25,609 nt of DNA, from contig NZ_JBHFNU010000005.1 of assembly GCF_041929145.1 (NCBI RefSeq), positions 84,868-110,476 of the forward strand, in the 5' to 3' direction. Below, piece by piece: positions 3,807 to 25,609 of this stretch (positions are counted from its first letter, which is position 1; every line of letters starts with the position of its first letter). Both the position numbers and the translations under genes were made by a program. This stretch comes from Aerosakkonema sp. BLCC-F183. Lineage in GTDB: Bacteria; Cyanobacteriota; Cyanobacteriia; Cyanobacteriales; Aerosakkonemataceae. The notes under the pieces are model-generated. The model saw nothing but the letters and a program-made list of their open reading frames with translations. It was not told the DNA's origin and did not search any database.

Positions 3807-3928
3807 GTGCGGGATTGCGATCGTCAAGTAATATGGTAGAAATTGTTTACTGAGTCTCTGGCAACCAAATCGTTGCCTGACCAGGCGCACTCAGCCCAGA
3901 CACTAATTTAAGTTATCAGCACCTACCG

Positions 3929-9138: not shown

Positions 9139-9187
9139 AAAGTCAAAAGTCAAAAGTCAAAAGTCAAAAGTCAAAAGTCAAAAGTAA
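9139..9187. repeat. Heptanucleotide tandem repeat (AAGTCAA x~7)
   Basis: aaagtcaaaagtcaaaagtcaaaagtcaaaagtcaaaagtcaaaagtaa immediately after the large-subunit stop codon. Heptamer tandem repeats are a known cyanobacterial genome feature. Confidence 0.9.
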
Positions 9188-10117: not shown

Positions 10118-10225
10118 AACCCCACCCCCAACCCCGACCCGTCCACGGGGAGGGGAGAAACAGGTGTAGGGGGAGGGGTGAAACAGGTGTAGGGGGAGGG
10201 GTGAAAGAGAGAGGGGCTTCAGGGG
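10118..10225. repeat. C-run/G-run region with a 23-nt direct repeat (GAAACAGGTGTAGGGGGAGGGGT x2), a potential G-quadruplex or long hairpin
   Basis: cccacccccaaccccgaccc followed by ggggaggggag and two copies of aaacaggtgtagggggaggggtga. It lies between the convergent fibrillin gene and the last cas-operon gene. Confidence 0.8.
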
Positions 10226-10285: not shown

Positions 10286-10906
10286 CTAATCAACGCATTT
10301 GACGCTTTTGATACTGCCATTTTTTAAGGCTGTTATTTTTACTTTTACGATCTGCCCTTGCTGGAGAGAACTCGCTTTTTTCGGTTCTTTTTCAGTCAAT
10401 TTAATCGCGCCTAATATTTGATATGTCACTTTATTACCTGCAATGCCAATAACTTGGGCATCTAAGATTTGATCGATCGCAAAATCTTGAGATTGCGTCA
10501 CTTGTAAAATTTCGGCTTGCCGAGTAGATTCTATGACAGGAGCGGTAATTTCGCCGATCGGTCCCGCTTCTTTGTAGTAGCGCATTAAGCGAATTGACCA
10601 CCCTAAAATTTGCAGGATAGCTGTTACATCATTTTGATAAAGTTGCAAATATTTGGTGCAAGTTCTTTCTATGCTATCATAATATCCAGATGTTTTTTGG
10701 CTATATCCGATTCTATTACCTTGGCGGGAAAGTGTTTGCAGATAACTAAAAAATTTCGTGCCGGCATTTTCGCGATCGCTATAAGCGCGAAGATATGCCA
10801 TCACTTTACCCAATTCATTTACATCAGTCTCTTCTTTGACCAATGTTTGAGCAATTCCGTGAGCAATTTGCCATTGAATTTCGGTTAAATCGGTGGTAGT
10901 AAACAT
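10286..10906 (-). CDS. Hypothetical protein, last gene of the type III-D-like cas operon (candidate III-D-specific accessory, Csx19-like?)
   Basis: 206 aa with ATG at 10906, immediately abutting the stop of the upstream Cas7 gene. It has a helical N-half and a beta-rich C-half (GQIVKVKITALKNGSIKSVKC). No family was recognised, and the assignment is by operon position only. Confidence 0.45.
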   Translation of the reverse strand: MFTTTDLTEIQWQIAHGIAQTLVKEETDVNELGKVMAYLRAYSDRENAGTKFFSYLQTLSRQGNRIGYSQKTSGYYDSIERTCTKYLQLYQNDVTAILQILGWSIRLMRYYKEAGPIGEITAPVIESTRQAEILQVTQSQDFAIDQILDAQVIGIAGNKVTYQILGAIKLTEKEPKKASSLQQGQIVKVKITALKNGSIKSVKCVD

Positions 10907-11947
10907 TTAATAAACTCCGTCTATAGGTTCTCTAGTTGTCGGCCATTGCAGAACTTGTTGTAACTCTTTCAATTGTTGAGATTGTACTAATTGGGTGGAT
11001 GCCGATCGCACGGCTTTTTGGATGAATTCCTGGAGGGAATTACCAGTCAGAGAAGGGGGTGAGGTGTTGTAATTGCAATAGCGATCGCGCCATTCTTTCT
11101 CTTTTTCAATCCGCTGAATTTCTGTTACTTCAACTACCATCGTTCCCATACCAATTGGTTTACCGCCTCCCACTTTTAAAGCAATGGGATTTTTACTATC
11201 TTGTCCTAACACAATCAACAGCGTTCCCAATTCGGCTAAACTTAAATTCCTAAATCCAATTTGGGTAGTAAATATCAATTCTTTTCCCGCTTGTTGAACT
11301 GGAATACCTTGTTGTCCTTTGTCAATCGATTTAACAAAATGGTAATAAAACTTGCGTCCAGCTATTCTTCCATTTATATAGTAGCCGGCACGTTGTTTTC
11401 TGGGTGCATAAAGTGAGGGCATAAATCCCACACTCCACTGTGCATTGTTGAGAATCGCATCAGAAAAGCGAATCAAACCTTGCCAATCCATTGCCCCAAA
11501 AACTTGACAAGCCGGACAAAGTTTAGTATTATCTTTACATTCCCGATAACCATTCGGAATTTGACTCTGTTCTGCCTTAGTTTTGCACAAACAACTGCGC
11601 GTAATTGCTTCATAAGTAGAACGCACAACGCCTTTAAGGGAACTTCCCGGAACGATCGACTGTCGATCGCGTCCAACGGCAGTTTTGATTAGGGGGATAT
11701 TTTTGGCATTTCCCGATAAGTCGCTACCCATTGCGACAACGCCAGAAGCGACAAAAGTAGCGGTTTTCACCGTTAAGCGCAGAAAGATTGTACCGCTAAT
11801 GCGATCGCTTTTAAACCGATCTTGTCCAATTGGTTTATCTCGCGGTGGCGGCTGACTGGGTAGAGAAATGAGTTGATAAGGTTTTGGATTAGCAGTTTCT
11901 GGTGCAGGATTAGGTTGAGGGCGTCGAATTGGTCGATTGTTAGTCAT
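10907..11947 (-). CDS. Cas7-group RAMP (Csm5/Cmr6-like) with Zn-finger insertion
   Basis: 346 aa. It has a RAMP N-terminus (PYQLISLP), a G-rich segment and the Cas7 signature IVPGSSLKGVVRS. A Cys cluster (CLCK...C...CPAC) is present. It overlaps the upstream gene by 4 nt. Confidence 0.8.
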   Translation of the reverse strand: MTNNRPIRRPQPNPAPETANPKPYQLISLPSQPPPRDKPIGQDRFKSDRISGTIFLRLTVKTATFVASGVVAMGSDLSGNAKNIPLIKTAVGRDRQSIVPGSSLKGVVRSTYEAITRSCLCKTKAEQSQIPNGYRECKDNTKLCPACQVFGAMDWQGLIRFSDAILNNAQWSVGFMPSLYAPRKQRAGYYINGRIAGRKFYYHFVKSIDKGQQGIPVQQAGKELIFTTQIGFRNLSLAELGTLLIVLGQDSKNPIALKVGGGKPIGMGTMVVEVTEIQRIEKEKEWRDRYCNYNTSPPSLTGNSLQEFIQKAVRSASTQLVQSQQLKELQQVLQWPTTREPIDGVY

Positions 11948-12459
11948 GGGGATATCTCAACAGTGAGAGCGATAAAATGTACCGTGGAAGTTTCGCGATC
12001 GATGAAATAACGTTGAGCTATTTTAACTTTGTTTGGATTATTCTTTTCATCCTTAATTATGGGATTGAGAGCGTCAGGTACAATGAATTTTTGGGGAAAC
12101 CGAGTTTCATCGGGACGATAAATGTAAGCAGGTCGTTGTTCTACTTTCCACTCTATCTTTTTATCTTGTTCCTTTTTTTTATCTCGTTCCTCATCAATAG
12201 AAGTGAAAGCAGAATCTTTACCAGTTATTGACAGCAATAATACTGAATAACCTTGACCTTGTTGTTTCCAACGCAATTCGCGATCGCAATTAAACATTTG
12301 TCCTTCTGGACTGGGAAATTCTTTTAATTCCTCTACAATTCCACTGACGCGATCTTGCCACCGAAGAAAGTAATAAGTAGGCTTTTTCGCAAATTTATCT
12401 AGCAATTTTCTGAGATCTTCAGATGAGTCAACTTGTTTAATACCTACAAAAGGATTCAT
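11944..12459 (-). CDS. Hypothetical protein embedded between Cas7 genes (candidate all1473-like III-D signature gene)
   Basis: 171 aa with ATG at 12459, coupled by 4-nt overlaps on both sides. No motif was recognised. Its position between two Cas7 genes matches the uncharacterised gene of canonical III-D loci. Confidence 0.45.
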   Translation of the reverse strand: MNPFVGIKQVDSSEDLRKLLDKFAKKPTYYFLRWQDRVSGIVEELKEFPSPEGQMFNCDRELRWKQQGQGYSVLLLSITGKDSAFTSIDEERDKKKEQDKKIEWKVEQRPAYIYRPDETRFPQKFIVPDALNPIIKDEKNNPNKVKIAQRYFIDRETSTVHFIALTVEISP

Positions 12460-13451
12460 GCTGCTGTCCCTTGCAATATTTCACACCAAGCTTCTACAGT
12501 TTGCGAGAACAATTCACGCACTTTATCGCTCCCTTCCCAACTCTGTTGCACGCCAAAATTAAACTCAATTGGTGTTGTTTTTGGTGATGTTTCTTTCAGA
12601 TCGTTAGGGGGAAAACCATAGCGGTTTCTTTCTTCATCTTCCAGAAACATTCCCGCACCCAATAAGGAAGTAAGCGGCCATTTTGTTTCTGTGCCGATCG
12701 CGCTAATTTGTTCATCTTTTATAATACAGCCAGGATATTGGACAACGGCTGAATTTAACTTAACTTCCACCAATCCCAAACCGCGAGATTTAGCGAAACC
12801 TAATCCAAACCAACCTTGATTTAAATCGCGCAATACTAAACCGATTAATCCTAATTGTGCAAGGGTAAAATTTCTGAGATGAATTTTGGTATGAAATTCT
12901 CCGGCGGTACAAACTTGAAAATTAAATGGCCCTACAGCGACCGAACCAAACACTCTGTCAATAGCTACGCCATTGCGTTCTTCAATTTTCAACAATTTGG
13001 GATTAACCGGATAAGCATCTTCTATTCTGACGCGACTGGCGATCGCAGTATTGCCAAACATTTGGGAAATAAAACAAGATTGCTTGTATAATTCCGCGCC
13101 GGGATGGGGATGATTTTTATTTTTCTTTTTCCAGTTGTCTAGGTAAAGATTGATGTTTTTTTGTTCGTCTTTGTCGTCGCTGAGAGGGTCGCTTGCCCAG
13201 ACAGTGGTAGAATTATTAGGACGGCGATCGCTTCCCACCGTCCGCACAATTCGTTCTGCATGGGCGCGAATAGCACCTTTGAGAGAACTTCCGGGTAAAT
13301 AAATTGTCCGTCCTCCGCCGTGATAGGTTTCCACAAATTCCATATCCGGTTTCGTAGGGTCAGCACCTTCTTTGCCAGATTTAATTAAGATAGGGCCAGC
13401 AGGTGTGATAGTTAATTCTATTGTACATTGATTGACAAATCGTTTAAACAT
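12456..13451 (-). CDS. Cas7-group RAMP (Csm3/Csm5-like)
   Basis: 331 aa with the Cas7 signature IYLPGSSLKGAIRAHAERI and a G-rich loop (GFAKSRGLGLVE). Confidence 0.8.
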   Translation of the reverse strand: MFKRFVNQCTIELTITPAGPILIKSGKEGADPTKPDMEFVETYHGGGRTIYLPGSSLKGAIRAHAERIVRTVGSDRRPNNSTTVWASDPLSDDKDEQKNINLYLDNWKKKNKNHPHPGAELYKQSCFISQMFGNTAIASRVRIEDAYPVNPKLLKIEERNGVAIDRVFGSVAVGPFNFQVCTAGEFHTKIHLRNFTLAQLGLIGLVLRDLNQGWFGLGFAKSRGLGLVEVKLNSAVVQYPGCIIKDEQISAIGTETKWPLTSLLGAGMFLEDEERNRYGFPPNDLKETSPKTTPIEFNFGVQQSWEGSDKVRELFSQTVEAWCEILQGTAA

Positions 13452-14319
13452 TGCTGTTTTCCTCGGCAGTGGTATTAGCAGACATAAAAGTTCTTAAATG
13501 GGTAATCAAAGCATTTGTCCATTCCTGTTTGAGGAAAGCAATTCTTTCTGGATAGCATGAGTAAATATCCATTTCTCCGTTAACCAGATTTTGCAGGTAA
13601 TTTAGTAATAACTCTGGATCGTCTTCTGCATCAAACCATTGCATTTCTTTAATATCCAATTTCACCACACCCAATCCGCGAGAACGTCCACCGCCTAACG
13701 GAATTTGTTCAGTTTCAAATTGGTGCAATCCGATGGTTAATAAACCTAATTCCCAAGCTTCGGCGTTTTCAACTACTGCTTTAAACTCAAATTGCGTTCC
13801 TGCCGGTACAACTTGAAAATCGTATAATTTCGCATCAGCAGCAGTTTCGGTATCGCGATCGATCGCAACTCCATCTCGTTCTTGATATTGTCCAAACCAA
13901 CTATCTAGTAATACCGTTAAATCTCGTACTTGAAATTTACTGGCGATCCAAGGAGAACCGAATAAGCGAGAAACTAAATCGGTTTCTTTTAAAATTGCAG
14001 TGGTGAGGTCAAAATCATCTTTGTTTTCGTCCTTAAGTTGCTTGATTTCATCAGCTTTTAGCGACCATTCATCCTCTACGGCGGGATTGGCGACTAATTT
14101 GCGATCGCTTCCCACAATCCCGCGCAGGAAGCTTTCTAAACGCGATCGCAAAGCACCTTTAAAACTCGACCCCGGAATTAAAGGTCGTCCTACCGCATCT
14201 TTAATTACTGGTAAATCCGAACCAATTGGTTCTGTGGAACGTCCCGCGCCAATTCGCAAAGCGGTGATAGTTGTGAGAGTTCCGGTGATTTCCAAACGAC
14301 TTTTGAAAGTATCAAACAT
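13444..14319 (-). CDS. Cas7-group RAMP (Csm3/Cmr4-like backbone subunit)
   Basis: 291 aa with the N-terminus LEITGTLTTITALRIGAGR ... PLIPGSSFKGALRSRLESFL and a C-terminal G-rich loop GGGRSRGLGVVKL. A SD-like AGGTGGA precedes the ATG at 14319. Confidence 0.85.
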   Translation of the reverse strand: MFDTFKSRLEITGTLTTITALRIGAGRSTEPIGSDLPVIKDAVGRPLIPGSSFKGALRSRLESFLRGIVGSDRKLVANPAVEDEWSLKADEIKQLKDENKDDFDLTTAILKETDLVSRLFGSPWIASKFQVRDLTVLLDSWFGQYQERDGVAIDRDTETAADAKLYDFQVVPAGTQFEFKAVVENAEAWELGLLTIGLHQFETEQIPLGGGRSRGLGVVKLDIKEMQWFDAEDDPELLLNYLQNLVNGEMDIYSCYPERIAFLKQEWTNALITHLRTFMSANTTAEENSNV

Positions 14320-14339
14320 ATCAATCCACCTATTTTTAC

Positions 14340-15500
14340 TTACTTTTTAATGCCTTCTCTTTTGTAAATATACTCATGTGTTCCGTAGTATCGCAGAGAT
14401 AATCTTCCTCCATCTGCAACTTTGCAGCTAACTCGTCGAGTCTGAGCCGTAATGTTGATATGGTCGATATTTGTATTCTGATATCTACGAAGCCTCAGAA
14501 TATCATCGTCTTTCAAAGCGCTGATCCCATCTCCATGTTTGAATAATAGGTAAGCTGCTCTAGCTAGCCTTTCTTGCAACTGAATCCTTTCCTGAATGTC
14601 TAAAGTATTTTGGTAATCTTTGCAAAAGCTTTGTTCATAATCCAATTTAGGAAATTTGACTAAATCTTCCGAAAGTAACTCGTCTTTGCATTGATTCCAA
14701 ATCAATTTTCCCCATGTCGATAAAGTCATTTCTTTGCCATCAACCAAAACCCATTCTTCCGGGACTTTCTTTGCTTCTTCCCAAGATGTAGGAATTTCTC
14801 CAACATCCATCATTGCTAGTTGTACTTTGTATGGCTCAACCTTGGAGCGATCTACCTTTACAGGAAGTTGTGGAATTTTGATTACTTCATTCGATCCCTC
14901 AAAAACATAGACAATTTCATTAGCATAAAACATTCCAATGGTATTGAAGTAGCCTTGCAAAGCTTTGAATCCACCAACTAAATTGAAATAAATCTGGTAT
15001 TTGCTACTTTTAGAAGCAATAATTATTTCTTGCAGTGTGGGAATTAATTTTGCCATTCCCTCTATAAAGGTAGCGCTACTGGCGATGGACAGTCCAGGCT
15101 GTATACAAGTACTGGTGTTATTCAATCCGTTACTTTTCAAAAATGACTCTACAATGTTTGCAGTAACTCTAGCTTGTGCTGTGTCAGTAGCAACTAATAA
15201 ATGAGTATCTTCTGTACCCTGTTCTAGTTTATTATTGTACAAACCATAGATGCCATTCAGTTCCGCGCTCAACTCTCGGATTTCTTCAAGCTCGGTATCG
15301 TCATTGTAAAGCTTTTCTTCCGCCCTATTCTTCAACTTTTCAATAATATGGGAAATATCCTCATGATATTTTTTTATTTCATCAACAGTATAATTTGCAG
15401 TTTGCTGTAGGCACTTAGACCAGCTATCTGGATCGATATCGCGGTCAATTTGATTGGTCAATAAACTTGTACCGACAGTGGAAATTACGAGTCGAGGCAT
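14340..15500 (-). CDS. CARF-domain protein with C-terminal putative HEPN-like domain (Csm6/Csx1-type cOA-activated effector candidate), embedded in the effector operon
   Basis: 386 aa with ATG at 15500 and AAGGAG upstream. The N-terminal Rossmann strand MPRLVISTVGTSLL and the later NLVGGFKALQGY motif match the CARF core signature (hhhhS.G.S ... TGG[TF]K). The C-terminal region carries RYYGTH (R-x4-H), which is compatible with a HEPN RNase motif. Confidence 0.55.
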   Translation of the reverse strand: MPRLVISTVGTSLLTNQIDRDIDPDSWSKCLQQTANYTVDEIKKYHEDISHIIEKLKNRAEEKLYNDDTELEEIRELSAELNGIYGLYNNKLEQGTEDTHLLVATDTAQARVTANIVESFLKSNGLNNTSTCIQPGLSIASSATFIEGMAKLIPTLQEIIIASKSSKYQIYFNLVGGFKALQGYFNTIGMFYANEIVYVFEGSNEVIKIPQLPVKVDRSKVEPYKVQLAMMDVGEIPTSWEEAKKVPEEWVLVDGKEMTLSTWGKLIWNQCKDELLSEDLVKFPKLDYEQSFCKDYQNTLDIQERIQLQERLARAAYLLFKHGDGISALKDDDILRLRRYQNTNIDHINITAQTRRVSCKVADGGRLSLRYYGTHEYIYKREGIKK

Positions 15501-15534
15501 AGAGATACACTCCTTTGTAAACGATAGTTAAAAC

Positions 15535-15951
15535 CTAAATTTCACCTTTATTTTTGTATACCAGATAGCGTGCGCCATAACCAAGATAGCGACGGGTTAG
15601 CTCTAGCCAAATTTGGTTATATTCATCAACTTCAGCCGCTTTTGCTATTTCTTTAGCAGCCTCCTTAATGTCTTTATCGATGTTACGAATAATTTTTGCT
15701 GCTAAAGATTGTTCGCCTTTACCCCACTTTTTGTCACGCCCTACCTGATAACGCAAAAAGTTTTTGATTACTTCTGTGCTTTCAGTTGTATCAGCAACTC
15801 TTAGAAGATTACGAAATTGGGATTCTTGTAAATCACCATAAGAGCTTTTATCATCTAAAGCATCTTGGATCTTAGTCACTAGCTTATCCTCAGCTTGGCG
15901 AATACCTTTTTGAATCTTGAGTTGTTTTTGCGGATCGAATGGTTCGTTCAT
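15535..15951 (-). CDS. Cas11-like small subunit (Csm2/Cmr5-type, alpha-helical)
   Basis: About 138 aa from the ATG at 15951, which forms an ATGA overlap with the Cas5 stop (the track start at 15990 is TTG). It is small, Lys/Glu-rich and helical, and sits directly after Cas5 as in III-D loci. Confidence 0.5.
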   Translation of the reverse strand: MNEPFDPQKQLKIQKGIRQAEDKLVTKIQDALDDKSSYGDLQESQFRNLLRVADTTESTEVIKNFLRYQVGRDKKWGKGEQSLAAKIIRNIDKDIKEAAKEIAKAAEVDEYNQIWLELTRRYLGYGARYLVYKNKGEI

Positions 15952-17222
15952 ACAGGTTCCTCCTGAAATACAAGATGAAATTCGTTGCAAACTTCAATTT
16001 GACCGAAGCCTTCACAGGTGCGATCGCCGACACCTACAATCTCTAAATTTTCTAATGCTTTCATCCAAGCATCTCGTTGTGCAGTGCTAAATAAATACAC
16101 CGCTCCTTTATTAGTTATCAGTTCCACATCTTTCATCAATCCCCAAGCAGAATTCCAGCCAGAACGATAGTCATAGCTACTATACGCTGCTTCAAGTTTT
16201 AAGGTGGAATCTTTAACGCCAGTAAACTTTTTTAGCATTTCTTCCGAAATTACAGTGGTACCCTGCCAGTTATCGGTCAAAATCGCCTCAGAGTGTAAAT
16301 CCAAAGAAAAGTAGGTGCGATCGATCGCCAATTCTTTTAAAGGACTACCAAATACTCTCCATTCCTTCCAACGTTGTCCAAGTTTTTCATTAAAATTCTC
16401 GACTTTTGCAACTACATTGGGTTTAATATCTACAATTTTAGCTTGAATTTTGACTTTTCCCAACCCGCGTGAAGTAGAACCACCTAAGCGGAAATTTTCA
16501 CTGCGATCGAGAATAAATTGCGTCAGAGAATCTGCCAAACTATCTTCTACCAAAATTGAGCCGCAGTAAATAACAGGTTTGGGCTTTTTACCTTTCGATT
16601 CAGATTCATTCAGAACTTCTATGCTGTAAAGTATTTCCTCTTCAGCCGTAGCCAGTCTTCGATTAATACCTACTCGTGTTAATAGGCGTTTATTAACACT
16701 ATGAGCGTGATATTTATCATTGAGTTTGCTGTAAAAACAACTATGTGCATCGACTCGCCCTCCGTCTGTTGGACAATTGGGATCGTAGGGATAACCGTAA
16801 CCTTCAGCACAGAAGCGATCGATCAGAGTATCGAAAACGCCGTTACTTCCTTTTTTAGACGTAAACCCAGAGCTATTTTTAGAACTCAGCGCAGTAGTAG
16901 GTAGCACCCTAACTTCTGGTTGTAATATAGTTTTATCCTTTATTTCTATAGTTGCAGGATAAGCATTTTGAAAAATTGCGGGAGTATCATCAAGAAATAA
17001 AGCCTGAAAATCACCGCCATTTTCTGAGAAATCTTGGCTCCATTCCTGCTGTTGTTCGCTTTGTTGTAGCTGACGATATTTTTGCAAAATTTGAGCGGCA
17101 ATTGCACCCCGAATTACGCTTCCGGGAATATAACTTTCTACTTCGCTAATTGAACCGCCTGGTTTCTGGCGTGCTATTGCCAGAGGAGATAAAGCTTTAA
17201 TTTCTAATAGAATGCGCTTCAT
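15948..17222 (-). CDS. Cas5-group RAMP (Csx10/Csm4-like)
   Basis: About 424 aa from the ATG at 17222, which forms an ATGA overlap with the upstream stop (the track start at 17252 appears to be TTG). It has LEIKALSPLAIARQ...YIPGSVIRGAIAAQ, reminiscent of the Csm4 L.L.F.SPLHIG...IPGS.IKG pattern, and a C-terminal G-rich loop GGSTSRGLGKV. Confidence 0.65.
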   Translation of the reverse strand: MKRILLEIKALSPLAIARQKPGGSISEVESYIPGSVIRGAIAAQILQKYRQLQQSEQQQEWSQDFSENGGDFQALFLDDTPAIFQNAYPATIEIKDKTILQPEVRVLPTTALSSKNSSGFTSKKGSNGVFDTLIDRFCAEGYGYPYDPNCPTDGGRVDAHSCFYSKLNDKYHAHSVNKRLLTRVGINRRLATAEEEILYSIEVLNESESKGKKPKPVIYCGSILVEDSLADSLTQFILDRSENFRLGGSTSRGLGKVKIQAKIVDIKPNVVAKVENFNEKLGQRWKEWRVFGSPLKELAIDRTYFSLDLHSEAILTDNWQGTTVISEEMLKKFTGVKDSTLKLEAAYSSYDYRSGWNSAWGLMKDVELITNKGAVYLFSTAQRDAWMKALENLEIVGVGDRTCEGFGQIEVCNEFHLVFQEEPV

Positions 17223-17959
17223 TGCACCCTTCCTTTTGCCAAGAATTGCCAAACAGTTTCATCCACTTGAATTTCAGGTAAATCCCAATGTAACCAACCT
17301 AAACCCGCAGATTTACTGCCGCCCAGTGCGTGAATATGCCGCAAACCAGCCCAAATCAGCGCTTTAGCATAATCAGGTCGATCGGGTGTTACGGGTGTTA
17401 GGCTTGGTTGGATGTGAATATTACCCTCAAATCTGAGTTTAAGATTTACGGGAGAGGTTTCCAAAAAGTAAAGTTTTTTCTCCTCCGCAGTGCGGCGACG
17501 GCGATTAATCGTCACACCCGGACGGATAACTTCAGGTAAATTTTCAGGGTCTTCTGTGCAAACTAAATCATCAAAGATTACTCGTGATGGTAAAACCGGA
17601 TCGCCAAATATTTGGCTAATTAAACAGTGATATGTTTCATTATACCCTGCAACTTGATACTCGCTACGACAAAATTCGCTCGGTGAACTTTCTCGCCGTA
17701 AAACCATTTTTTTAGGGCTAGGAGATTTACAAATTGCCCAACCCAAAGCCCTTGCAAATTTTTCGCATTCATGGCGCAGGCGACCCTTGACTTGAGAGCC
17801 AGGAATTAGCAGATTTGTTTGGGAGTCTCGAACAATCGGTTTATCTGCTAGGGAACTAGAAGAACCACCAGCACCTACACACAAAGCCGTATCAATTATA
17901 GCAGTAATTTTGTGTGTTTCTACTTCAATTAAATTTGATAAATTTCTGAGAAATATCAT
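17219..17959 (-). CDS. Cas7-group RAMP, small (Csm3-like)
   Basis: 246 aa with CVGAGGSSS...LLIPGSQVKGRLRHE. Its start overlaps the cas10 stop (TGATG). Confidence 0.75.
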   Translation of the reverse strand: MIFLRNLSNLIEVETHKITAIIDTALCVGAGGSSSSLADKPIVRDSQTNLLIPGSQVKGRLRHECEKFARALGWAICKSPSPKKMVLRRESSPSEFCRSEYQVAGYNETYHCLISQIFGDPVLPSRVIFDDLVCTEDPENLPEVIRPGVTINRRRRTAEEKKLYFLETSPVNLKLRFEGNIHIQPSLTPVTPDRPDYAKALIWAGLRHIHALGGSKSAGLGWLHWDLPEIQVDETVWQFLAKGRVQ

Positions 17960-20346
17960 CAGTCAGCCTCCTGAGTTACAAGTCTTTCCTGGGATGTTCC
18001 AGAATCTTCAGATGTCTCAATGAAGTCATAGAGGTCTACCAGTTCTCGCCAAATTGTTTCGTAGGTTGTCTCTCCTGGTTCTAGAATGGACATCCAAGGA
18101 GCTAGATTACCCTTATTATTTTGCTCTTTTGGTTGACACCAAGCTTCTTCAAACTTTTCTTTTAATTCTTGTTGTCCTTGCTGGAGTCGAACTCGAAAAT
18201 AACGGTAGTTAAGAATAGCGGTATGCTTGCCCCGTTCCAGTAGATCGCGAATTTGGTACAGTTGCGATCGCGGAAATTTTGCCTTGTTCAATGCGTCGAT
18301 TGTCTCAATCAATCCTCCTAATTCATGCAAAGTATAAGGGGCCGCATATAGCTTTAAAGTAGGAGTGTGTATGTCCTTAATTTTCACCTCTGGATTTTTA
18401 ATTAATGCCTGCTTTCTGAACTCGTCGATATCGGATGAAATCATCGTTACAGCTTTCAGCACTAAAAAATCAACCGTACCGCCACAATAGCCATATTTTC
18501 TCAACTTCTTTGCCTTGCTTTTAGCAGATTTAAGTAACTGCTCATAAAGGTTTTTTGCGTAGTAAATAGGAGTGTTGTAAGCTGTAATCAACACGCCGCT
18601 CGATATACTTAGTTGACACTGAGAAAGTTCTGCTTTTTCGCTTGAGTAGCGGTGGCATTTTTTGAGGTCAATTGGCTTTTCAGATTGCTTAGTATGATAG
18701 TTGCCTTGAATTTCTACACCTGCCAGAGATACTTGTTTGAGGAGGATTTTTTCAAACTGCTCGCCAATCATTTTAGCGATCGCCAATGCCTGAGAAGCTG
18801 GCACAATCAAAATAATATCATCTCCGCCAATCGTAATAATTTCAAAGGGATGAATGAAATCACCATCCTGCCATCTTGAATCTGGATCTTTAATTCCTCT
18901 AATCTGGCGGGGATGAAGATTATATGCTAAGGCTTGATAAACAGCATACTCAGTTGCGTTGGCCACATCTTCGCTAAACTCTTTGTATTTTTCTGGCGTA
19001 GTGCATATTTTCTGAATAAATCCTCCCATGTTGTTGCCATCAGCATAAATATAGGCAACAAAACCATTGCTGACATTGCCTAAATGCGTTAATGATTTAG
19101 CAATTTTAACATCATCCTGTTGGCAGGTTTGATAATATTGCTGACATTGCTCGGAATTTTTCTGTAAAAATTCCTCGAATTTGTCAACCCAACCTTCTAT
19201 TATTCCAGGTTGCCATTCTAGCCCGGTATTTTTGTACCATTCTGGTGTTTTAGCTAATCCCGTTTTAGCGCGATCGCCTACTCGTCTTTTACGTGCAGAA
19301 ACTTCAGAAAATTGAGATTCGCTGGGCAATAAAGGTGGCTGAACGATCGCCACAGCAGATCTGCGATCGCCTTCATCCCTTCTCAAATAAGGATGAGTTT
19401 CAAACATCGGTGGGTAGCGGCGACTGGGGCGATCGGGAAAATCATTTCCACTGCGGCGTTGATTAAACAGAATCGCCAATTTAGTTGTTAATTCATTAAA
19501 ACTTTTCCGGTTAGCAAAAGCTTCTTCAACAGATACCGGATCGCTAATACATGGCTCATTTGGCTTTTTCTCCAAGTTGCCAAAGTAAGCCCGAACCAAT
19601 GGTTTATTATATTCTTGACGATACCGCTCTAACCAGAAATTATTTTCAATGGGGTCTTGTAGCAGACCAAATCGAGTTTCCATTAACCTAAAGGTATCGG
19701 CGACTGCACAGGAATTAGCTGCTAAAGTTTCCTCGGTGTAACGCTTTTCAATAGCATTAGCTAAGTCATCTGCAAAAGCCGCTGGGCAAAACGCCAGAAT
19801 ATTACCGCCAGTTGAGTAGATGATTAGTTCAGGAATTAACGCATCTGAAAATTTTGGTTCATTAGGAAAGTTGTCGTTAAGCCATGTTCTTACTTCTTGA
19901 CACTGGATAGTGTAGTTGTAGAGAATTGATTCAGGGTTTTTGTTAAAAAAAGCAGGCAAATCGCTCAGATTGATTCGATCTAGTAGTGCAGAAGCACCCC
20001 GAATATCTGGGAGTTTTGCCGCTTCAAATACGTATTGTTTAATCTTGGTTGCACCGCCGTAAACCAAGCCTATTCGAGAGTTCCAAAGGATAGAATGCTG
20101 TTCGGCCAATAACTTTAACTCATCTAACGTTTTGGGAAACTTTAGAGTTTCTAATTGCTTGACTTGTTCGAGGAGCGATCGCATTTTTTCTGGAATATCT
20201 GTCCCAGCGTGCAATGCTTCCCGCATCTGGTGCAATTCCTTGATATCAAATTGCGGTTGGCGCTGTTCTCCCCAAGCCAGACACCAGGCGATTCCAACGA
20301 AAAGCTTTCCTGATGCTGTCTTTATGTCTTGTTGAAAGTTACTCAT
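17959..20346 (-). CDS. cas10: Cas10 large subunit of a type III CRISPR-Cas effector complex (III-D-like, no recognisable N-terminal HD domain, intact GGDD cyclase motif)
   Basis: 795 aa with ATG at 20346. The palm/cyclase motif FEIITIGGDDIILIVPASQALAIA is present. No H..HD..D motif is found in the first ~150 aa. It is the first gene of a coupled RAMP operon with the order cas10-cas7-cas5-cas11. Confidence 0.85.
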   Translation of the reverse strand: MSNFQQDIKTASGKLFVGIAWCLAWGEQRQPQFDIKELHQMREALHAGTDIPEKMRSLLEQVKQLETLKFPKTLDELKLLAEQHSILWNSRIGLVYGGATKIKQYVFEAAKLPDIRGASALLDRINLSDLPAFFNKNPESILYNYTIQCQEVRTWLNDNFPNEPKFSDALIPELIIYSTGGNILAFCPAAFADDLANAIEKRYTEETLAANSCAVADTFRLMETRFGLLQDPIENNFWLERYRQEYNKPLVRAYFGNLEKKPNEPCISDPVSVEEAFANRKSFNELTTKLAILFNQRRSGNDFPDRPSRRYPPMFETHPYLRRDEGDRRSAVAIVQPPLLPSESQFSEVSARKRRVGDRAKTGLAKTPEWYKNTGLEWQPGIIEGWVDKFEEFLQKNSEQCQQYYQTCQQDDVKIAKSLTHLGNVSNGFVAYIYADGNNMGGFIQKICTTPEKYKEFSEDVANATEYAVYQALAYNLHPRQIRGIKDPDSRWQDGDFIHPFEIITIGGDDIILIVPASQALAIAKMIGEQFEKILLKQVSLAGVEIQGNYHTKQSEKPIDLKKCHRYSSEKAELSQCQLSISSGVLITAYNTPIYYAKNLYEQLLKSAKSKAKKLRKYGYCGGTVDFLVLKAVTMISSDIDEFRKQALIKNPEVKIKDIHTPTLKLYAAPYTLHELGGLIETIDALNKAKFPRSQLYQIRDLLERGKHTAILNYRYFRVRLQQGQQELKEKFEEAWCQPKEQNNKGNLAPWMSILEPGETTYETIWRELVDLYDFIETSEDSGTSQERLVTQEAD

Positions 20347-20662
20347 CTTTGATATAGGGTGTTTGTTCTAACTTTTGCACGAATTCAGGTAACGCCAGTT
20401 TTGGCGAAACAAAATGTTAAACCAACGAATTAGATGTTTGGCGATCGCTCAAGTATCTTCTCAATTCGATTGCCAAATTCTTGCCTCTATTCTGACATCC
20501 GTATGGAAAACCCCTTTTCCAAGTTTTAACTCGTTTTTGAGGTATCGAACAGTAGTACTTGCCTTCCAGAGTTTCCACGCTTCAGCCTGGAAACTCCAAA
20601 AAAGCGATGACTACACCTGGATTAGAAAATTTCCAGGTGCATCAAAACTTTTGATTTACTCT

Positions 20663-21220
20663 CTATTGAGGTTTGAGAAAGAGGTTTAACTCCAAATGGA
20701 AGATGTTGCGAATCTTAAGCAACAAACATACACCAGCGTGCGGAATCTTTGCCATATCCCGCAGAGTCGGACATAATCCATTTACAGCCACATTTTCAAC
20801 TGCTGAACTTATAATTTCAACAGGCTGCTTCTCCGATTTGTTGGTAGGGTGGTTTGTAGGATGGAATTCCAGGCTTTGCGGGTGATGGAGTGGCGCTTTT
20901 GCTTGTGAAGTGAGCAAGATGCCCAAATCTGTAGTCGCCCATGTTGGCTGCCCTATAATGGGTGTAGCCGCGAGAACAGCTTGCTTCCCCTCTCCAAAAA
21001 CTAAAATCGTTGATGGAGAAAAAACCTTTGAGATTGAGCCAGGATTGTACGAAAGGCTCAAATTACCTAACAACCCACAGGTTAAATTGCTGGATTGTTG
21101 ATTTTGTAAGGTTTGGAGGAAACAAGCTGTTCTCGCTGGGCTTTGAGTAGTTAATTGAGTTTGGAAAGTTATCTCGCTTAAGGAAGCGTTTTTTGTCAAC
21201 TTTGGTATTGCTTGAGGCAT
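20663..21220 (-). CDS. Hypothetical Ser/Thr/Gln-rich protein upstream of cas10
   Basis: 185 aa ORF with ATG at 21220, no clear SD and low complexity (HPTNHPTN). It could be non-coding leader or promoter space instead. Confidence 0.25.
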   Translation of the reverse strand: MPQAIPKLTKNASLSEITFQTQLTTQSPARTACFLQTLQNQQSSNLTCGLLGNLSLSYNPGSISKVFSPSTILVFGEGKQAVLAATPIIGQPTWATTDLGILLTSQAKAPLHHPQSLEFHPTNHPTNKSEKQPVEIISSAVENVAVNGLCPTLRDMAKIPHAGVCLLLKIRNIFHLELNLFLKPQ

Positions 21221-21444
21221 ACTTATACCTACAATGAAAGGATAGATTATAGTATAACCTAGCTCTACAGGGAAAACTTGTCTTTTCCTATATGTTCAAA
21301 AACCGTAATTTATTTTCCAAAATATTAATACCAAGCAAGTCATGGCTGGATACCCGATGGTTAGGTTGACTTCTGGATCAAATTTGTGTATACTTTATAA
21401 GTCAAATATCAGAATAATAGAAAATGCCGTTTTTCAATGGTTAG
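21221..21444 (+). promoter_or_regulatory. AT-rich CRISPR leader-like region preceding degenerate repeats (also contains the divergent promoter space)
   Basis: About 220 nt of AT-rich sequence (ttattttccaaaatattaatacc..., tgtgtatactttataagtcaaatatcagaataatag) lie immediately upstream of the first repeat-like unit. Confidence 0.4.
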
Positions 21445-21550
21445 ACAAAAACCTAAAAACTCCCCGTAAGGGGATTGAAACAGGCATTTCTCACTGAAAT
21501 TTGATTAGTTGACTAAGTTCTCAACTACTTCCCCGCAAGGGGACTAAAAC
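21445..21550 (+). CRISPR. Minimal or degenerate CRISPR array with two repeat-like units and one ~32-35 nt spacer, and a possible third decayed unit at 21655-21684
   Basis: Unit 1 is ...AACTCCCCGTAAGGGGATTGAAAC and ends at 21481. Unit 2 is GTTCTCAACTACTTCCCCGCAAGGGGACTAAAAC (21517-21550). Both have a CCCC-N4-GGGG hairpin and a 3' ...[T/C]T[G/A]AAAC handle. From memory they closely resemble the 37-nt cyanobacterial type III-D repeat GTTCAACACCCTCTTTTCCCCGTCAGGGGACTGAAAC. A third fragment reads TTCCCCAAATGGGGAC. Confidence 0.5.
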
Positions 21551-21684
21551 CTCAAAACTGCTACACAGTGCTTATTGCTAGGTAAACCAGCGATCGCCTA
21601 CTACCACTTGCTGAAAAAAGGACAGTAGCTTATGAAAGCTTTGTTCTGGTGTGTCGGCTTATTCCCCAAATGGGGACGGAAAGA

Positions 21685-22281
21685 TTACGAACTCGCCATC
21701 GCACCTTGCTGCAACTCTCTCACCACCCATTCCAATTCCTCCACCATCCAACTGCTACTCAACTGGCGGTAAATCTGCAATTGTTCTTGATAAAGCCATA
21801 ACACCCCTTCCTTACCGCCTCGGAAATAATGCCAAATTTCTTCGCCAAATTGCCTAAAATTAACCAACATAGTCCGCGCATTGTGCAACTTATCCGCCAG
21901 CATCACCCTTTGCACTGGCGGACAAGCATCTCGTAGCTGTTGGAGATATTGCTGTTTGTGTTCTTTCCAAGTCGGATATAAACTCGGTTCTGGCTCGGTG
22001 CAACCTTCTATAATATGGAAAACGCGATCGCCAAATCGCTGCAAAATTTCCGCCTTCGTTACTTCTCCCCCTCGGTCTTCCAGCGCATCGTGCAATAAAG
22101 CGGAAATTGCCTCATCTTCATCTCCTCCATCTTCCAACACCAAAGCCGCTACGCTCAACAAATGGGCAATATAAGGAGTACCTGTAATTTTCCGTTGTTG
22201 GTCGCCATGAAGTTGCGCCGCATATACCAACGCTTCCTGAAAACGCGAAGTTAAAATTGTCAAACACCGTTCATTCTTCAT
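21685..22281 (-). CDS. Small alarmone hydrolase-type HD-domain protein (RelA/SpoT hydrolase fold, Mesh1/SAH-like)
   Basis: 198 aa with ATG at 22281. The HD motifs LHGDQQRKITGTPYIAHLLSVAALV and AISALLHDALEDRGG match the (p)ppGpp-hydrolase HD_4 signature. It overlaps the upstream WYL gene by 11 nt. Confidence 0.8.
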   Translation of the reverse strand: MKNERCLTILTSRFQEALVYAAQLHGDQQRKITGTPYIAHLLSVAALVLEDGGDEDEAISALLHDALEDRGGEVTKAEILQRFGDRVFHIIEGCTEPEPSLYPTWKEHKQQYLQQLRDACPPVQRVMLADKLHNARTMLVNFRQFGEEIWHYFRGGKEGVLWLYQEQLQIYRQLSSSWMVEELEWVVRELQQGAMASS

Positions 22282-23686
22282 AAATTTTCCATTCTTTTTC
22301 GACTTCTCTCTTCGCCTGTTCTCGTAATTCCACAGGGAGGAGAATTTCTACATTCGGTCGCCACGCACGCAAGCGCTGCATTACGTTAGGATCGCCTTGG
22401 CGATATTGCGCTTGGTAATAAGCATCTTGGGGAGAACATTTGCGCCAAATATTTAACATCTTTTGTTGTTGTTCTCCCTTTAAGTTCTGCCGAATTAATC
22501 GTTCTACTTCTTGATATGCCACTCGCGCAAAGGTAGCATGGCGCATAGTATTGCGGATGTAGCGATTATCCCACTCGCGATCGAACCTCAATAGTAGCAG
22601 TTGTGGGGGTTGATAGTAATCAAAACCCCAAACTTCTGCGATCGCTAATTGGATATCATCGGGAATAGGCAGAGTCTTCTTTTGATATCGCCGTTTCAGC
22701 GCCACCGGAACTTGCGGATCGTCCCAACTCAAAGGGATCGAATCCTGAATGCGATCGAGCCGATAATTGCGAAAATCTAATTTTCCCGATTCGTCTTGCG
22801 GAACTTCGCCAAACGCACACAAATACGGCCCTCTCTGATAATAATAAATGCAAACGGGATAAACTACCACCGACAAAGTTGTTTGCCATACCGCACTTTC
22901 ATAACTTAACAAAATCGGCGGTACAACTTCCTGTTGCCAAAGTTCCCGCAGTTGTGCTTGCCATTCTTCGACACGATCGATCGAGTCTTGCGGAATCACA
23001 TATTCCAGATGGATAAAAAAGCGCTGCTGACCATTCAATCGCGTGGAAAGATTATCTGCGATCGCAGCCAAATCCGGTTGCGTGAGAAAATCCAAATTGT
23101 AAGCTATCAGACGAGAATCTGATTTTTGGATCGAACTCGGCGTCCGTGGATATTTCTTAACCCGATAATACCGATTTCCTTGGCGTTTCAGCCACCCGAT
23201 TTCTATCAAAACTTGCAAATCGCCATAAAGCGATCGTCTTGTCAAGCCAAACAAACGAGTATCGTGCAACAATTCTTTAAGGTTATCCGGTAACAAATGA
23301 TGTTCCCGCAAAGATTGTTCAAACGATCGCTCTTTTTCCTGTACTTCCGGCTTCCCTAATTCCCCTTTCCACTTTGACTGAGTTAAATTGAAATCAGAAC
23401 CAAATAACCAAGCAGCAACAGTTTTCGCACAACGGCATTTCGGGTCGTGCAACGCCGGAATTTCTTCTTCTCTAGTATGAGTCGCAGTAAAAAAAGCATC
23501 TCGCCATTCAGGATAAGTAAAATTTTCCGGCAAATTCAACTTAATGCCGGCTTCCCCATACAGAAAGTGCAACCACACCCACAACCGCACCGCCTGTAGC
23601 AATCTTTGTTTTAAATCTCCCCGCGCCAGCCATTGCAGCAGTTCCACACGAGGAGGTTCATTCCAAAAGGGGTTGACCGTTTCCAA
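22271..23686 (-). CDS. WYL-domain protein with winged-HTH (putative ligand-sensing transcriptional regulator associated with the type III locus)
   Basis: 471 aa with an apparent TTG start. A wHTH-like segment RLFGLTRRSLYGDLQVLIEIGWLKRQGNRYYRV is present. The WYL-domain core YPVCIYYYQRGPYLCAFGE...GKLDFRNYRLDRIQDSIPL matches the P..L.y..g.WYL.a....R.FRLdRI consensus. Confidence 0.6.
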   Translation of the reverse strand: METVNPFWNEPPRVELLQWLARGDLKQRLLQAVRLWVWLHFLYGEAGIKLNLPENFTYPEWRDAFFTATHTREEEIPALHDPKCRCAKTVAAWLFGSDFNLTQSKWKGELGKPEVQEKERSFEQSLREHHLLPDNLKELLHDTRLFGLTRRSLYGDLQVLIEIGWLKRQGNRYYRVKKYPRTPSSIQKSDSRLIAYNLDFLTQPDLAAIADNLSTRLNGQQRFFIHLEYVIPQDSIDRVEEWQAQLRELWQQEVVPPILLSYESAVWQTTLSVVVYPVCIYYYQRGPYLCAFGEVPQDESGKLDFRNYRLDRIQDSIPLSWDDPQVPVALKRRYQKKTLPIPDDIQLAIAEVWGFDYYQPPQLLLLRFDREWDNRYIRNTMRHATFARVAYQEVERLIRQNLKGEQQQKMLNIWRKCSPQDAYYQAQYRQGDPNVMQRLRAWRPNVEILLPVELREQAKREVEKEWKIYEE

Positions 23687-23799
23687 GCTACTCTCCCGAT
23701 TTCAGCGATTTGCCTTCCTTTCTAAGTATGCCTCATCTTGGAAGCAGGTGCTTCCACCAGTTTGATACAGTAGCAATAACTCAATGAACCTATTATTTA

Positions 23800-24156
23800 A
23801 TGTCAGCCATTCAATTACAACTGTTTCGGGAGCAAATCCAGTCAGGTCTGGCCTACCAACACCTGCACATCCAAATCAACACACCGGATGGACTGATTGC
23901 ACCAGCCGACCTGAAAAATTTATCTCTACCGGAGGAAATGGTCTGGAGTCAAGGCGTTGTCATTGAAGGTAAAGCGCCAATTTGGTTGTACGCCTATTTA
24001 GTTCACGCTTGTCACCCCGCCGCTTGGGTAGCTTGCTTCGACCCCCGCTTAGAAGGTGCAGTTATAATTGCTACACACAGTCGCCAAGTCGCACTCGGAG
24101 ATATTCTCAAACTCAACTTACCCGCAGCCATATTTCGCAAAACAACAGGTACGTAG
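23800..24156 (+). CDS. Csx3-like (Crn3-type ring nuclease candidate) stand-alone domain protein
   Basis: 118 aa with ATG at 23800. It is paralogous to the N-terminal ~115 aa of the 24533 gene (GKAPIWLYAYLVHACHPAAWVACFDPRLEGAVIIATHS versus GIAPTWLYANLVERCWQAPWIGCYTAPKNQIVVIQS). The stand-alone plus NTPase-fused pair next to a type III locus is the arrangement reported for Csx3 in cyanobacteria. Confidence 0.4.
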   Translation: MSAIQLQLFREQIQSGLAYQHLHIQINTPDGLIAPADLKNLSLPEEMVWSQGVVIEGKAPIWLYAYLVHACHPAAWVACFDPRLEGAVIIATHSRQVALGDILKLNLPAAIFRKTTGT

Positions 24157-24179
24157 TGATAATAAAAACTTTTTAATAG

Positions 24180-24497
24180 TAGGGTGGGTTAGGCACGCGC
24201 AATAATTTCAATACTTTCGATCGATAATTAAGTTCCCGTGCCGTAACCCACCATCCCACCTACCTGTAACATTGACAAACATTTTCCACCATAAACCCTC
24301 TAGACCCGAAGATTGTACCCTATCAACCCAAAAGAACCAAGCGTTAAAACGCAACAACATACGAAGGTCTGTAAATCTAGCTCTTTCAAGTTTATGCTTC
24401 GCTTTTGTAACAGACAATTGTGATGGTGGGTTACGGCACGGACAGTTAATTATTAGTTTTTTGAGAGAAATTATCGCCCGTGCCTAACCCACCCTAC
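24180..24497. mobile_element. MITE-like nested-palindrome repeat element, copy 2
   Basis: TAGGGTGGGTTAGGCACGCGCAATAA ... CCCGTGCCGTAACCCACC ... GGTGGGTTACGGCACGG ... TTATCGCCCGTGCCTAACCCACCCTA. It is homologous to copy 1 with a longer central segment, and it is inserted between the two Csx3-like genes. Confidence 0.7.
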
Positions 24498-24532
24498 TGC
24501 TAAATCCAAAAAACTCAACAAAAGGAATAAAA

Positions 24533-25465
24533 ATGAATACGATCGCCTTACAAAAACAAGTTGAACTGCAAGTCACCGAACTGAAAACCGCACAAGGAAG
24601 TTATCAAACTTTGGCGATTAGCTTAGTGATGTTCCAGGAACTAATAAAAACTGATGTACTCGCACAATTGAAACTTCCTGACGAACTAGACTTGAGCAGA
24701 GAAGTAATTTTATACGGTATAGCTCCTACTTGGTTGTATGCCAATTTAGTAGAACGCTGTTGGCAAGCGCCTTGGATAGGATGCTATACAGCGCCAAAAA
24801 ATCAAATTGTTGTAATTCAAAGTCGGATATCAACAATAAGTATAGGCGATGCGATACCTGTATTGCTTAACAACATTCCTTGTCCGGCAATTTTAATAGG
24901 TGGTTCGCCTGACAGCGGCAAAAGCGTTTTATCGAATGCTTTGCGTTTTAATTTGATGAAAACCGGAGCATTCAAACGAGTATTTGTACATCGCGCTTCT
25001 TGGGATGGTGAGGGAAATTGGGTTTACGAAGTAGCGAATCGGGATTTAGCTAAAAAGCTGATTGTAGAAAACGAGTTTCGATTGCACGAAAATCCCGAAA
25101 CGGCGAAGTTAATACCGAAATTCTTTAAATATCATAGCTCGGCGGTACAGAATTTGCGGGAAGTTGTCGATTTGGTTTTGGTTGATGTGGGTGGTAAACC
25201 GCAGCAAGAGAAAGCGCCTCTGGTCGCACAATGTACGCACTATATAATTATTAGTAAAGAATCAGATGAGATTCCCAAATGGCACGAGCTTTGTCATCCA
25301 ACTTTGCAGCCGTTAACGGTGATTCACAGCGTCCGACAAAAACGAGAAGAAGTTTGGCAAAAACAACCTTTTTTGGAAATCATCGACGGACGCTGGTGCG
25401 AAGGTGAAATCCAGTCTGTTCCCGATATCTTGCTGGAAAATGTGCTTAGGGTTTTGCACGCCTAG
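24533..25465 (+). CDS. Csx3-like N-terminal domain fused to a P-loop NTPase (Csx3-AAA-type accessory protein)
   Basis: 310 aa with ATG at 24533 and AAAGGAA upstream. Residues ~1-115 are paralogous to the 118-aa ORF. Walker A ILIGGSPDSGKSVLSNAL and a Walker-B-like hydrophobic strand DLVLVDVGG are present. Confidence 0.5.
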   Translation: MNTIALQKQVELQVTELKTAQGSYQTLAISLVMFQELIKTDVLAQLKLPDELDLSREVILYGIAPTWLYANLVERCWQAPWIGCYTAPKNQIVVIQSRISTISIGDAIPVLLNNIPCPAILIGGSPDSGKSVLSNALRFNLMKTGAFKRVFVHRASWDGEGNWVYEVANRDLAKKLIVENEFRLHENPETAKLIPKFFKYHSSAVQNLREVVDLVLVDVGGKPQQEKAPLVAQCTHYIIISKESDEIPKWHELCHPTLQPLTVIHSVRQKREEVWQKQPFLEIIDGRWCEGEIQSVPDILLENVLRVLHA

Positions 25466-25556
25466 AGCGCCAGCAGACCCGGATTTGGTACAACGCGGTG
25501 GGGTAGCGCCCATCTGAGCCGACACAACACCCTTTAAATTATTTATTTAAATAAAA

Positions 25557-25609
<53 letters not shown>

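Follow-up and report, generated by a model that had tools for sequence, protein, structure and literature searches.

What might two degenerate CRISPR repeats around a single spacer be doing beside a type III-D effector operon? The question is raised by 25,609 nt of DNA from the cyanobacterium Aerosakkonema sp. BLCC-F183 (contig NZ_JBHFNU010000005.1, positions 84,868–110,476), hereafter the window; as a check of its source, the Cas10 encoded in it is identical to a protein of this strain. At 21221–21684, an earlier reading of the sequence (the original prediction) had seen an AT-rich leader and three repeat-like units, and had left a choice between a functional one-spacer array, a decaying array and a repeat-derived regulatory element. 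Our comparison supports the last of these, through the conservation of the element and through a target in the same locus that co-evolves with it. We think it probable, from sequence comparison, that units 1 and 2 belong, as its degenerate repeats, to a conserved mini-CRISPR that encodes one CRISPR RNA (crRNA)-like regulatory RNA for the adjacent III-D effector. In kind, it would best be read as a type III analogue of the CreA/CreR regulatory mini-CRISPRs. The presumed regulated gene is an open reading frame (ORF) of 185 codons with no known domain (20663–21220, minus strand) that lies between the mini-array and cas10, and the presumed protein partner of the guide is the III-D effector operon at 10286–20346.

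Degenerate repeats and their conservation

All units of the element lie on the plus strand. Unit 1 (psi-R1, 21444–21481), eroded and expanded in its 5' half, carries the hairpin CCCCGTAAGGGG and the 8-nt tag ATTGAAAC; its core is CCCCGTAAGGGGATTGAAAC (21462–21481). A spacer-like guide segment (psi-S, AGGCATTTCTCACTGAAATTTGATTAGTTGACTA, 21482–21515), homologous to the spacers of other mini-arrays, separates it from unit 2 (psi-R2, 21516–21550), which has the core CCCCGCAAGGGGACTAAAAC (21531–21550), the hairpin CCCCGCAAGGGG and a degenerate 3' tail, CTAAAAC. Given units of 35–38 nt, the inter-repeat stretch (21482 to 21515 or 21516) measures 34–35 nt, in line with the common core and the distance of about 35 nt noted at the outset. 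The eroded third repeat (21647–21683; core CCCCAAATGGGGACGGAAAG at 21664–21683, hairpin at 21664–21675, tail ACGGAAAG) also lies where it had been placed: about 96 nt beyond unit 2 (originally about 95 nt) and ending 1 nt before the stop codon (21685–21687) of the hydrolase gene that it was said to abut. The pattern CCCC-N4-GGGG occurs three times in the 25.6 kb, always on the plus strand and within the three units, and a relaxed repeat pattern gives three matches versus 0.01 expected from shuffled sequences.

Rfam CRISPR-DR models span the full length of unit 1 (21444–21481, CRISPR-DR18, 26 bits) and unit 2 (21517–21550, 22.8 bits); unit 3 has no Rfam match. Since these scores are about half the gathering score of 50, we take units 1 and 2 for degenerate repeats. 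The hallmark of a canonical array, at least two near-identical and regularly spaced repeats, is missing: the two units are alike only in the 3' 20-nt core and differ in their 5' halves, and the spacing to unit 3 is irregular. Their 3' half is that of the repeats in ordinary arrays beside homologous III-D cas10 genes of other cyanobacteria (...TCCCCGCAAGGGGAC[G/T]GAAAC), with the Cas6-type hairpin and the 8-nt tag kept, and the hairpins form in every predicted fold. This likeness and the Rfam alignments bear out the III-D-type origin first proposed. Related cyanobacteria, where a lack of similar repeats was to have counted against the original prediction, have them both in the arrays beside homologous cas10 and in 17 mini-arrays. 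Cas6-2a cleaves III-D repeats 8 nt from the 3' end (PMC5741207), hence the expected guide RNA starts with ATTGAAAC at 21474.

The leader (21221–21444), the AT-rich stretch of about 220 nt seen before, has 31.7% G+C versus 42.6% for the window. A consensus scan gave a promoter-like site of the mini-array, TTGACT-17-TATACT (21366–21394, plus strand), both hexamers of which are conserved in the nearest relative, L098 (compared loci carry L numbers), and transcription of the mini-array is predicted to start near 21401.

How widely is this element found? The comparison set comprised 80 species-level loci with related III-D cas10 genes. Many of them carry normal arrays; two, L030 (Scytonema) and L074 (Coleofasciculaceae), carry a two-unit mini-array divergent from cas10. 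Regular-expression and covariance-model searches of the 80 loci returned no further mini-array, and a self-blastn for spacer-like direct repeats returned just L030 plus many TPR-gene repeats. A pattern scan of metagenomes yielded seven more mini-arrays, none within a longer array. Altogether, the succession of degenerate repeat, 31–35-nt spacer and degenerate repeat is present in 17 loci from several filamentous cyanobacterial genera. When these are aligned, the hairpin and tag of unit 1 are invariant, and so are the 5' part and hairpin of unit 2, the tail of which varies between loci. A covariance model scores the mini-arrays at 70–102 bits versus at most 64 bits for ordinary repeat-spacer-repeat units. 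The spacers are homologous across the 17 mini-arrays, not variable or derived from mobile elements, and those of the window and L098 differ by one base. What recurs is thus what marks a regulatory mini-CRISPR: one spacer between degenerate repeats beside a cas locus, conserved in position and sequence. The words "orphan" and "decaying" of the original prediction do not suit an element whose spacer, position and partner ORF are conserved across genera and whose match in the locus co-evolves with it.

The mini-array diverges from the small ORF and cas10 in the window, L098, L001, L030, L095, L099–L102, L074 and L088. Its orientation relative to cas10 had been read correctly; its adjacency had not, as the small ORF intervenes. 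Homology between the window and L098 runs from cas10 via the small ORF, the target and both promoters through the mini-array, and ends at 21572, with a short conserved tail after unit 2 (21551–21572, plus strand; pairwise alignment). Among the closest Cas10 relatives, L088 has a mini-array, and L089, the closest of all, has an ordinary 12-repeat array (3717–4462) at exactly the position of the mini-array. The mini-array of the window thus occupies the place of a normal array, and its descent from one was rightly assumed. One locus, L099, carries the mini-array plus a separate 4-repeat array (2790–3047).

A sister Aerosakkonema assembly (L001, GCA_041929185.1) has flanks 97–99.7% identical to the window and a different cas10 module. 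Between 14320 and 21437 of the window, the cas10-to-csx10 module, the small ORF and the leader all differ; homology resumes exactly at unit 1, with units 1, 2 and 3 kept and a different spacer. The L001 mini-array is chimeric, combining a window-like unit 1 and 3' part of unit 2 with a type-B-like spacer and 5' part of unit 2 (type B being a group of loci described below). Together with the end of L098 homology at 21572, this places the mini-array on a recombination junction. Unit 3 and the 95 nt before it are confined to these two Aerosakkonema strains and absent from L098 and all other loci; the unit is probably a relic of the terminal repeat, outside the conserved module. A role for it as terminator of the hydrolase gene is not supported, for no U-run follows it on the minus strand.

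Guide, target site and partner ORF

What could the conserved spacer recognize? No protospacer was found in phage, plasmid and IMG/VR collections, the check proposed in the original prediction (17-mer matches did not extend). A match lies within the locus. We scanned each whole locus with the tag, the spacer and the first bases of unit 2 as a query. In 9 of 11 loci the top match lies 293–364 nt upstream of the guide on the same DNA strand, and these in-locus targets score 46–54.5 versus a background of at most 33.5. The small ORF is read from the other strand, which makes its mRNA complementary to the guide. The arrangement is common to the window, L098, L074, L030, L095 and L099–L102. The site falls in the 5' untranslated region (UTR) of the small ORF in L030, L095, L100, L102 and L074, at least 24 nt before the start codon; in the window, L098, L099 and L101 it lies within the 5' coding part. 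In the window the target (T) site is at 21119–21161 on the minus strand, where the mRNA is complementary to tag positions –5 to –1, the spacer and the first 4 nt of unit 2.

Taken alone, the window match is modest. A plain-identity search is marginal (24/35 versus a shuffle maximum of 23); scored without every sixth position, 24 of 30 positions match, one more than the best of 500 shuffled guides (23) reached anywhere in the window. The T site is convincing only after comparative data are added to the scoring that skips every sixth position. Another candidate, a 13-nt exact match of the 3' part of the spacer to 4612–4632 (minus strand) inside a tandem-repeat ORF, was judged a chance match because it is not conserved with the spacer of the sister strain and involves the wrong part of the guide.

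The comparative data come from three lineages (the window with L098; L074; six type-B loci), whose guides are mutually dissimilar and whose targets are mutually dissimilar. Cognate guide–target pairs score 45–58, cross-lineage guide–target pairs 15–36, and orthologous spacers or targets compared across lineages 17–44. Matched changes in both partners are seen within type B: GTTG to GTTC in L100 and L102, GTCAG to GTCAA in L095, and CTCG in L099 and L101. The partial complementarity of the guide thus co-varies with its target. Neutral decay would leave a guide closer to its orthologues; the opposite is seen, each guide being closer to its own target.

The partner ORF has few relatives: its family counts 13 proteins, all unnamed, in 5.8 billion. 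ORFs in the corresponding position of L001 and L030 are distant homologues of the window ORF. With five further members retrieved, the ORF invariably comes just before a III-D cas10 on the same strand, 230–350 nt upstream. Small ORF and divergently upstream mini-array occur together in 10 of 10 loci; in L074, a non-homologous small ORF stands at the same place with a matching site of its own. Profile searches of Pfam, NCBIfam, PADLOC and PDB gave no match to the small protein, and its AlphaFold2 model is unusable (predicted local distance difference test score 41). A perfect TATAAT –10 box for the small-ORF transcript (21246–21251, minus strand) lies within the motif TAGATTRTARTA common to type-B loci. 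It is conserved in L098 and in L100/L102, and went unlisted by the consensus scan since it has no good –35 hexamer. Read from 21251 to 21246, this box would put the T site inside the small-ORF transcript. The 316 nt from the small ORF to cas10 also hold a strong hairpin (GAGTTTCCA...TGGAAACTC, about 20563–20600), conserved in L098, that could be a terminator-like or processing element separating two transcription units.

Mismatches between guide and target are not scattered at random. The window alignment is ungapped, with mismatches at spacer positions 2, 5, 6, 12, 16, 17, 18, 24, 30, 32 and 34. These include every multiple of six in the 34-nt spacer (6, 12, 18, 24 and 30), five in all; over 36 nt, five of six such positions are mismatched. 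Pooling independent lineages, we found a peak at period 6 (Rayleigh test, R ≈ 0.5), in phase with the multiples of six (6, 12, 18 and onwards). The P-value ranges from <2e–5 to 0.002 with the choice of the pooled type-B locus (three sets, two at ≤4e–4 and the third at 0.002). A pooled Fisher test gives P-value = 1.2e–4, two of its three sets being both type C and hence not independent. In class 1 complexes, every sixth base of guide and target is flipped out (PMC11026444; PMC11127173). Pairing also extends into the tag: in the window it covers positions –1 to –5, in other lineages –2 to –4 or –5, with wobble pairs in type B. The match is best at the guide 3' end, and at the T site there are mismatches within the first 12 guide positions.

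Re-scanning all loci with every sixth position ignored revealed targets in a sister clade, clade C, where the geometry is the opposite one. Clade C mini-arrays sit downstream of their III-D operons. L092 and L096 have two tandem sites each (24 and 22–23 matches of 30) and L093 has one (21/30); with the mini-array taken as the plus strand and L092 reverse-complemented, they lie at L092 172–240, L096 4206–4274 and L093 10210–10245. Each of these lies on the opposite DNA strand, in a co-directional gene's 5' extension, and mRNA and guide are once more complementary. The guide is unpaired over its first nine positions, and positions 12, 18, 24 and 30 are again mismatched. The target gene encodes a Gp49/HigB toxin (RelE/ParE family) and is followed by a helix-turn-helix (HTH) antitoxin-like gene.

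The guide has a further, inverted copy next to it. A leader segment (21400–21440, plus strand) is an inverted copy, about 80% identical, of the 5' tag and spacer positions 1–25, and in RNA pairing predictions it pairs with tag and spacer to form a long stem around the unit 1 hairpin. By z-score, the leader–spacer duplex reaches –3.2 for the window; six other loci, which show compensatory changes, range from –3.1 to –5.8. The fold of the predicted transcript (21401–21575) has z = –4.6. The pairing is conserved, again with compensatory changes, in clade C and L091, and is weak in type B. The leader copy might gate processing or act as a target mimic.

Proposed action and competing explanations

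We infer the following course of events. An RNA would be transcribed rightwards from about 21401, and Cas6, encoded elsewhere in the genome, would be expected to cut it at the base of the unit 1 hairpin, leaving the 8-nt tag before a 34-nt guide. Loaded on the Cas7 backbone, this guide would pair with the leftward small-ORF mRNA at 21119–21161 in 5-nt blocks, every sixth base being free, and pairing would extend into the tag (an anti-tag match). The complex would bind, and probably cut, the small-ORF mRNA without switching on Cas10 signalling. In sum, the effector would repress the small ORF, and possibly the downstream cas10, at the post-transcriptional level.

The silence of Cas10 in this scheme follows from published rules for type III complexes. 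To activate Cas10, tag and anti-tag must be mismatched over about 5 nt and the target must be complementary to the guide over about 12 nt next to the tag, whereas Cas7 cleavage needs no mismatched tag and uses the guide 3' end as its seed (PMC11127173). Tag:anti-tag pairing marks a transcript as self by the same source, and such pairing is present at the T site. With the tag paired, the tag-proximal part mismatched and the 3' part matched, binding and cleavage without Cas10 signalling are predicted.

Which known systems does this resemble? CreA of CreTA and CrePA (types I-B, I-F and others; PMC9458426, PMC12737573) likewise has two degenerate repeats around a spacer-like segment, with the parts needed for processing spared. 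It too lies beside a cas operon and a small gene, and its spacer is partly complementary to the control region of that gene. Its target genes are diverse, and here the clade C target belongs to a bona fide toxin family, Gp49/HigB. By contrast, the effector here is the RNA-reading III-D complex, and the match is to mRNA (5' UTR or 5' coding part), not to promoter DNA beside a protospacer-adjacent motif (PAM). Immune silence here would come from tag:anti-tag pairing and tag-proximal mismatches; CreA achieves it by pairing limited to the seed. CreR and crlRNA (types I-B, I-E, I-F1 and V-A) share with our element a degenerate mini-array in or beside the cas locus that guides its own effector to a site in that locus, with feedback on effector availability, but the known cases repress transcription at cas promoters, whereas the mini-array described here would act post-transcriptionally. 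A PAM-flanked promoter DNA target and a DNA-binding effector are absent in our case. Because the sites lie in transcribed 5' regions, the mRNA is always complementary to the guide and the effector is III-D, we file the element as a variant of these systems and not as a member. With an ordinary III-D array such as Synechocystis CRISPR2, processed by Cas6-2a, it has in common the repeat family, the 4-bp G-C hairpin with an 8-nt ...GAAAC tag, and the position and orientation to cas10 seen for the 12-repeat array of L089; it differs in having two non-identical units, a conserved non-immune spacer, a target within the locus and pairing between leader and spacer. In type II systems, tracr-L and scaRNA are also repeat-derived RNAs that redirect their own effector, Cas9, to an endogenous gene by partial complementarity, although there the effector is a class 2 DNA-binding one and the RNA architecture is different.

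The toxin target of clade C favours a safeguard of the CreTA/CrePA kind over simple Cas autoregulation. By analogy, the most likely role would be one in which loss or inhibition of the effector frees a harmful product, and the small ORF of the window may be toxic as in CreTA; Cas autoregulation is the alternative role. We put forward, tentatively and with somewhat less than even confidence, a type III CRISPR-guarded toxin–antitoxin system. In it, a crRNA-like antitoxin RNA would use just the Cas7 backbone of the III-D complex, which binds and cuts RNA, against the mRNA of a neighbouring harmful gene. Anti-tag pairing and mismatches close to the tag would hide it from Cas10. The toxin would be freed when the effector is lost or blocked by an anti-CRISPR, and the inverted guide copy in the leader would be a target mimic that gates processing or titrates the guide.

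Several observations weigh against a regulatory guide. The module is present in 2 of the 80 species-level III-D loci and so is not general to III-D. Complementarity between guide and target is about 68–80%, with 1–3 indels in some lineages, and two loci have no good target (L001 weak, L088 none). Since similarity runs into repeat-derived flanks, a duplicated repeat-spacer unit is the probable origin of the T site, and the resemblance would then be partly inherited. The sixth positions of the periodicity are counted from the tag, a register that we take to be that of type III. No cas6 was found in the 25.6-kb window. The small protein lacks any toxin signature, and most of it is predicted to be disordered. 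Finally, a large survey of repeat-like elements found no conserved positions or targets for type III mini-arrays and deemed them degraded (bioRxiv 10.1101/2023.03.03.530964).

That opinion, together with the degenerate repeats, the eroded third unit that follows them, the ordinary array at the same position in L089, the traces of repeat flanks in the T site and the poor targets of L001 and L088, would suit a decaying III-D array without present function, the look-alike site being an older duplicated repeat-spacer unit. However, neutral decay predicts none of the features that set these loci apart: a two-unit architecture kept with the same degeneration pattern across several genera, co-occurrence with the small ORF in every one of the 10 loci, guides closer to their own targets than to orthologous guides, mismatches concentrated on every sixth position, and a second geometry, that of clade C, which preserves complementarity to the mRNA. 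We therefore consider decay improbable. The strongest rival, still an unlikely one, is autoregulation of the Cas proteins only, similar to CreR, with the small ORF as the first gene of the cas10 operon and the guide tuning the effector by the level of free complex. This logic is established for types I-B, I-E and V-A (bioRxiv 10.1101/2023.03.10.532045), and it agrees with a target in the 5' UTR or at the 5' end of a transcript heading to cas10 and with the constant place of the small ORF 230–350 nt upstream on the same strand. It does not explain why 78 of 80 related III-D loci do without both ORF and mini-array, why the clade C target is a toxin gene at the far end of the operon, or why the non-homologous small ORF of L074 has its own matching site; moreover, the strong hairpin in the gap between ORF and cas10 makes co-transcription uncertain.

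Two other explanations deserve far less credence. A Cas-independent element, either a structured antisense small RNA or two similar 40-bp DNA operators, for instance for the neighbouring WYL protein, is very improbable. The strongly structured predicted transcript, the compensatory leader–spacer pairing and the CRISPR-associated WYL-domain gene nearby are compatible with it, but neither a plain RNA duplex nor a protein operator explains the mismatches at sixth positions, and the conserved Cas6-type hairpin with its 8-nt tag and the strand switch by which complementarity between mRNA and guide is preserved are left unexplained. Least credible of all is a functional one-spacer immune array directed against a mobile element, one of the original options. 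Such an array could have the promoter-like site, leader, intact hairpins and tag seen here, next to an apparently complete effector operon; yet its spacer is conserved and homologous across genera and matches nothing in the phage, plasmid and IMG/VR collections, its two repeats differ, which is unexpected after normal acquisition, and neither cas1 nor cas2 was found in the window.

Self-directed regulatory guides have so far been known for the DNA-binding effectors of types I and V, not for RNA-targeting type III, and a search of one literature library found no later report of type III crRNA-like regulators. If a regulatory guide is indeed encoded here, type III systems too carry domesticated guides, which act on RNA. 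Such a guide would illustrate a way for a cell to direct a type III complex against one of its own transcripts while cyclic-oligoadenylate signalling stays off, and would supply a natural design rule for silent programmable RNA knock-down with III-D: 5-nt pairing blocks, a paired tag and a spoiled tag-proximal 12 nt. It would also link type III loci to toxin modules, with a bearing on addiction, anti-anti-CRISPR defence and the stability of cas loci.

Effector operon, accessory genes and flanking repeats

The type III-D effector operon (10286–20346, minus strand) is complete in effector genes by profile and annotation searches. Its order is cas10, cas7, csx10, cas11/csm2, a CARF protein gene, cas7, cas7, csx19, a RAMP protein gene and csx21, and cas10 (17959–20346, minus strand) has an intact GGDD motif. 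No ordinary CRISPR array was found in the window. We also looked beyond it for one: a poly-A run closes the window, and in the sister contig 62 nt follow the last gene before the contig stops.

To the right of the mini-array follow an HD_4/SpoT-like hydrolase gene (21685–22281, minus strand), the CRISPR-associated WYL-domain gene and two Csx3 ring-nuclease genes. Although the effector module was swapped, the sister strain L001 has an almost unchanged copy of the whole accessory block (21685–25465), which encodes the SpoT-like HD_4 hydrolase, a TIGR03985 WYL protein, a Csx3 and a fusion protein with Csx3. In L098, a 403-aa Cas6 with an extra sigma70_r4-like HTH region (140–1351) is convergent to the mini-array; the equivalent position in the window is taken by the HD_4 hydrolase gene.

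Composite repeats resembling miniature inverted-repeat transposable elements (MITEs) lie at 9206–9442 and 24176–24497, about 15 kb apart, and flank the III-D locus and its accessory genes. They consist of pieces of 77 nt (86% identity), 53 nt (79%) and 31 nt (100%), each with internal inverted repeats. Their bracketing position hints that the III-D locus is a mobile or exchangeable cassette.

Simple repeats are also present. A 9-nt tandem repeat (4575–4627) lies within the ORF at 3929–5053, and further simple repeats occur at 9139–9187, 10147–10215 and 25550–25609. The window contains an (AAAGTCA)n repeat, and 23-nt GGGGAGGGG repeats lie downstream of csx21. The poly-A run that closes the window, in the 25550–25609 region, is probably an assembly end.

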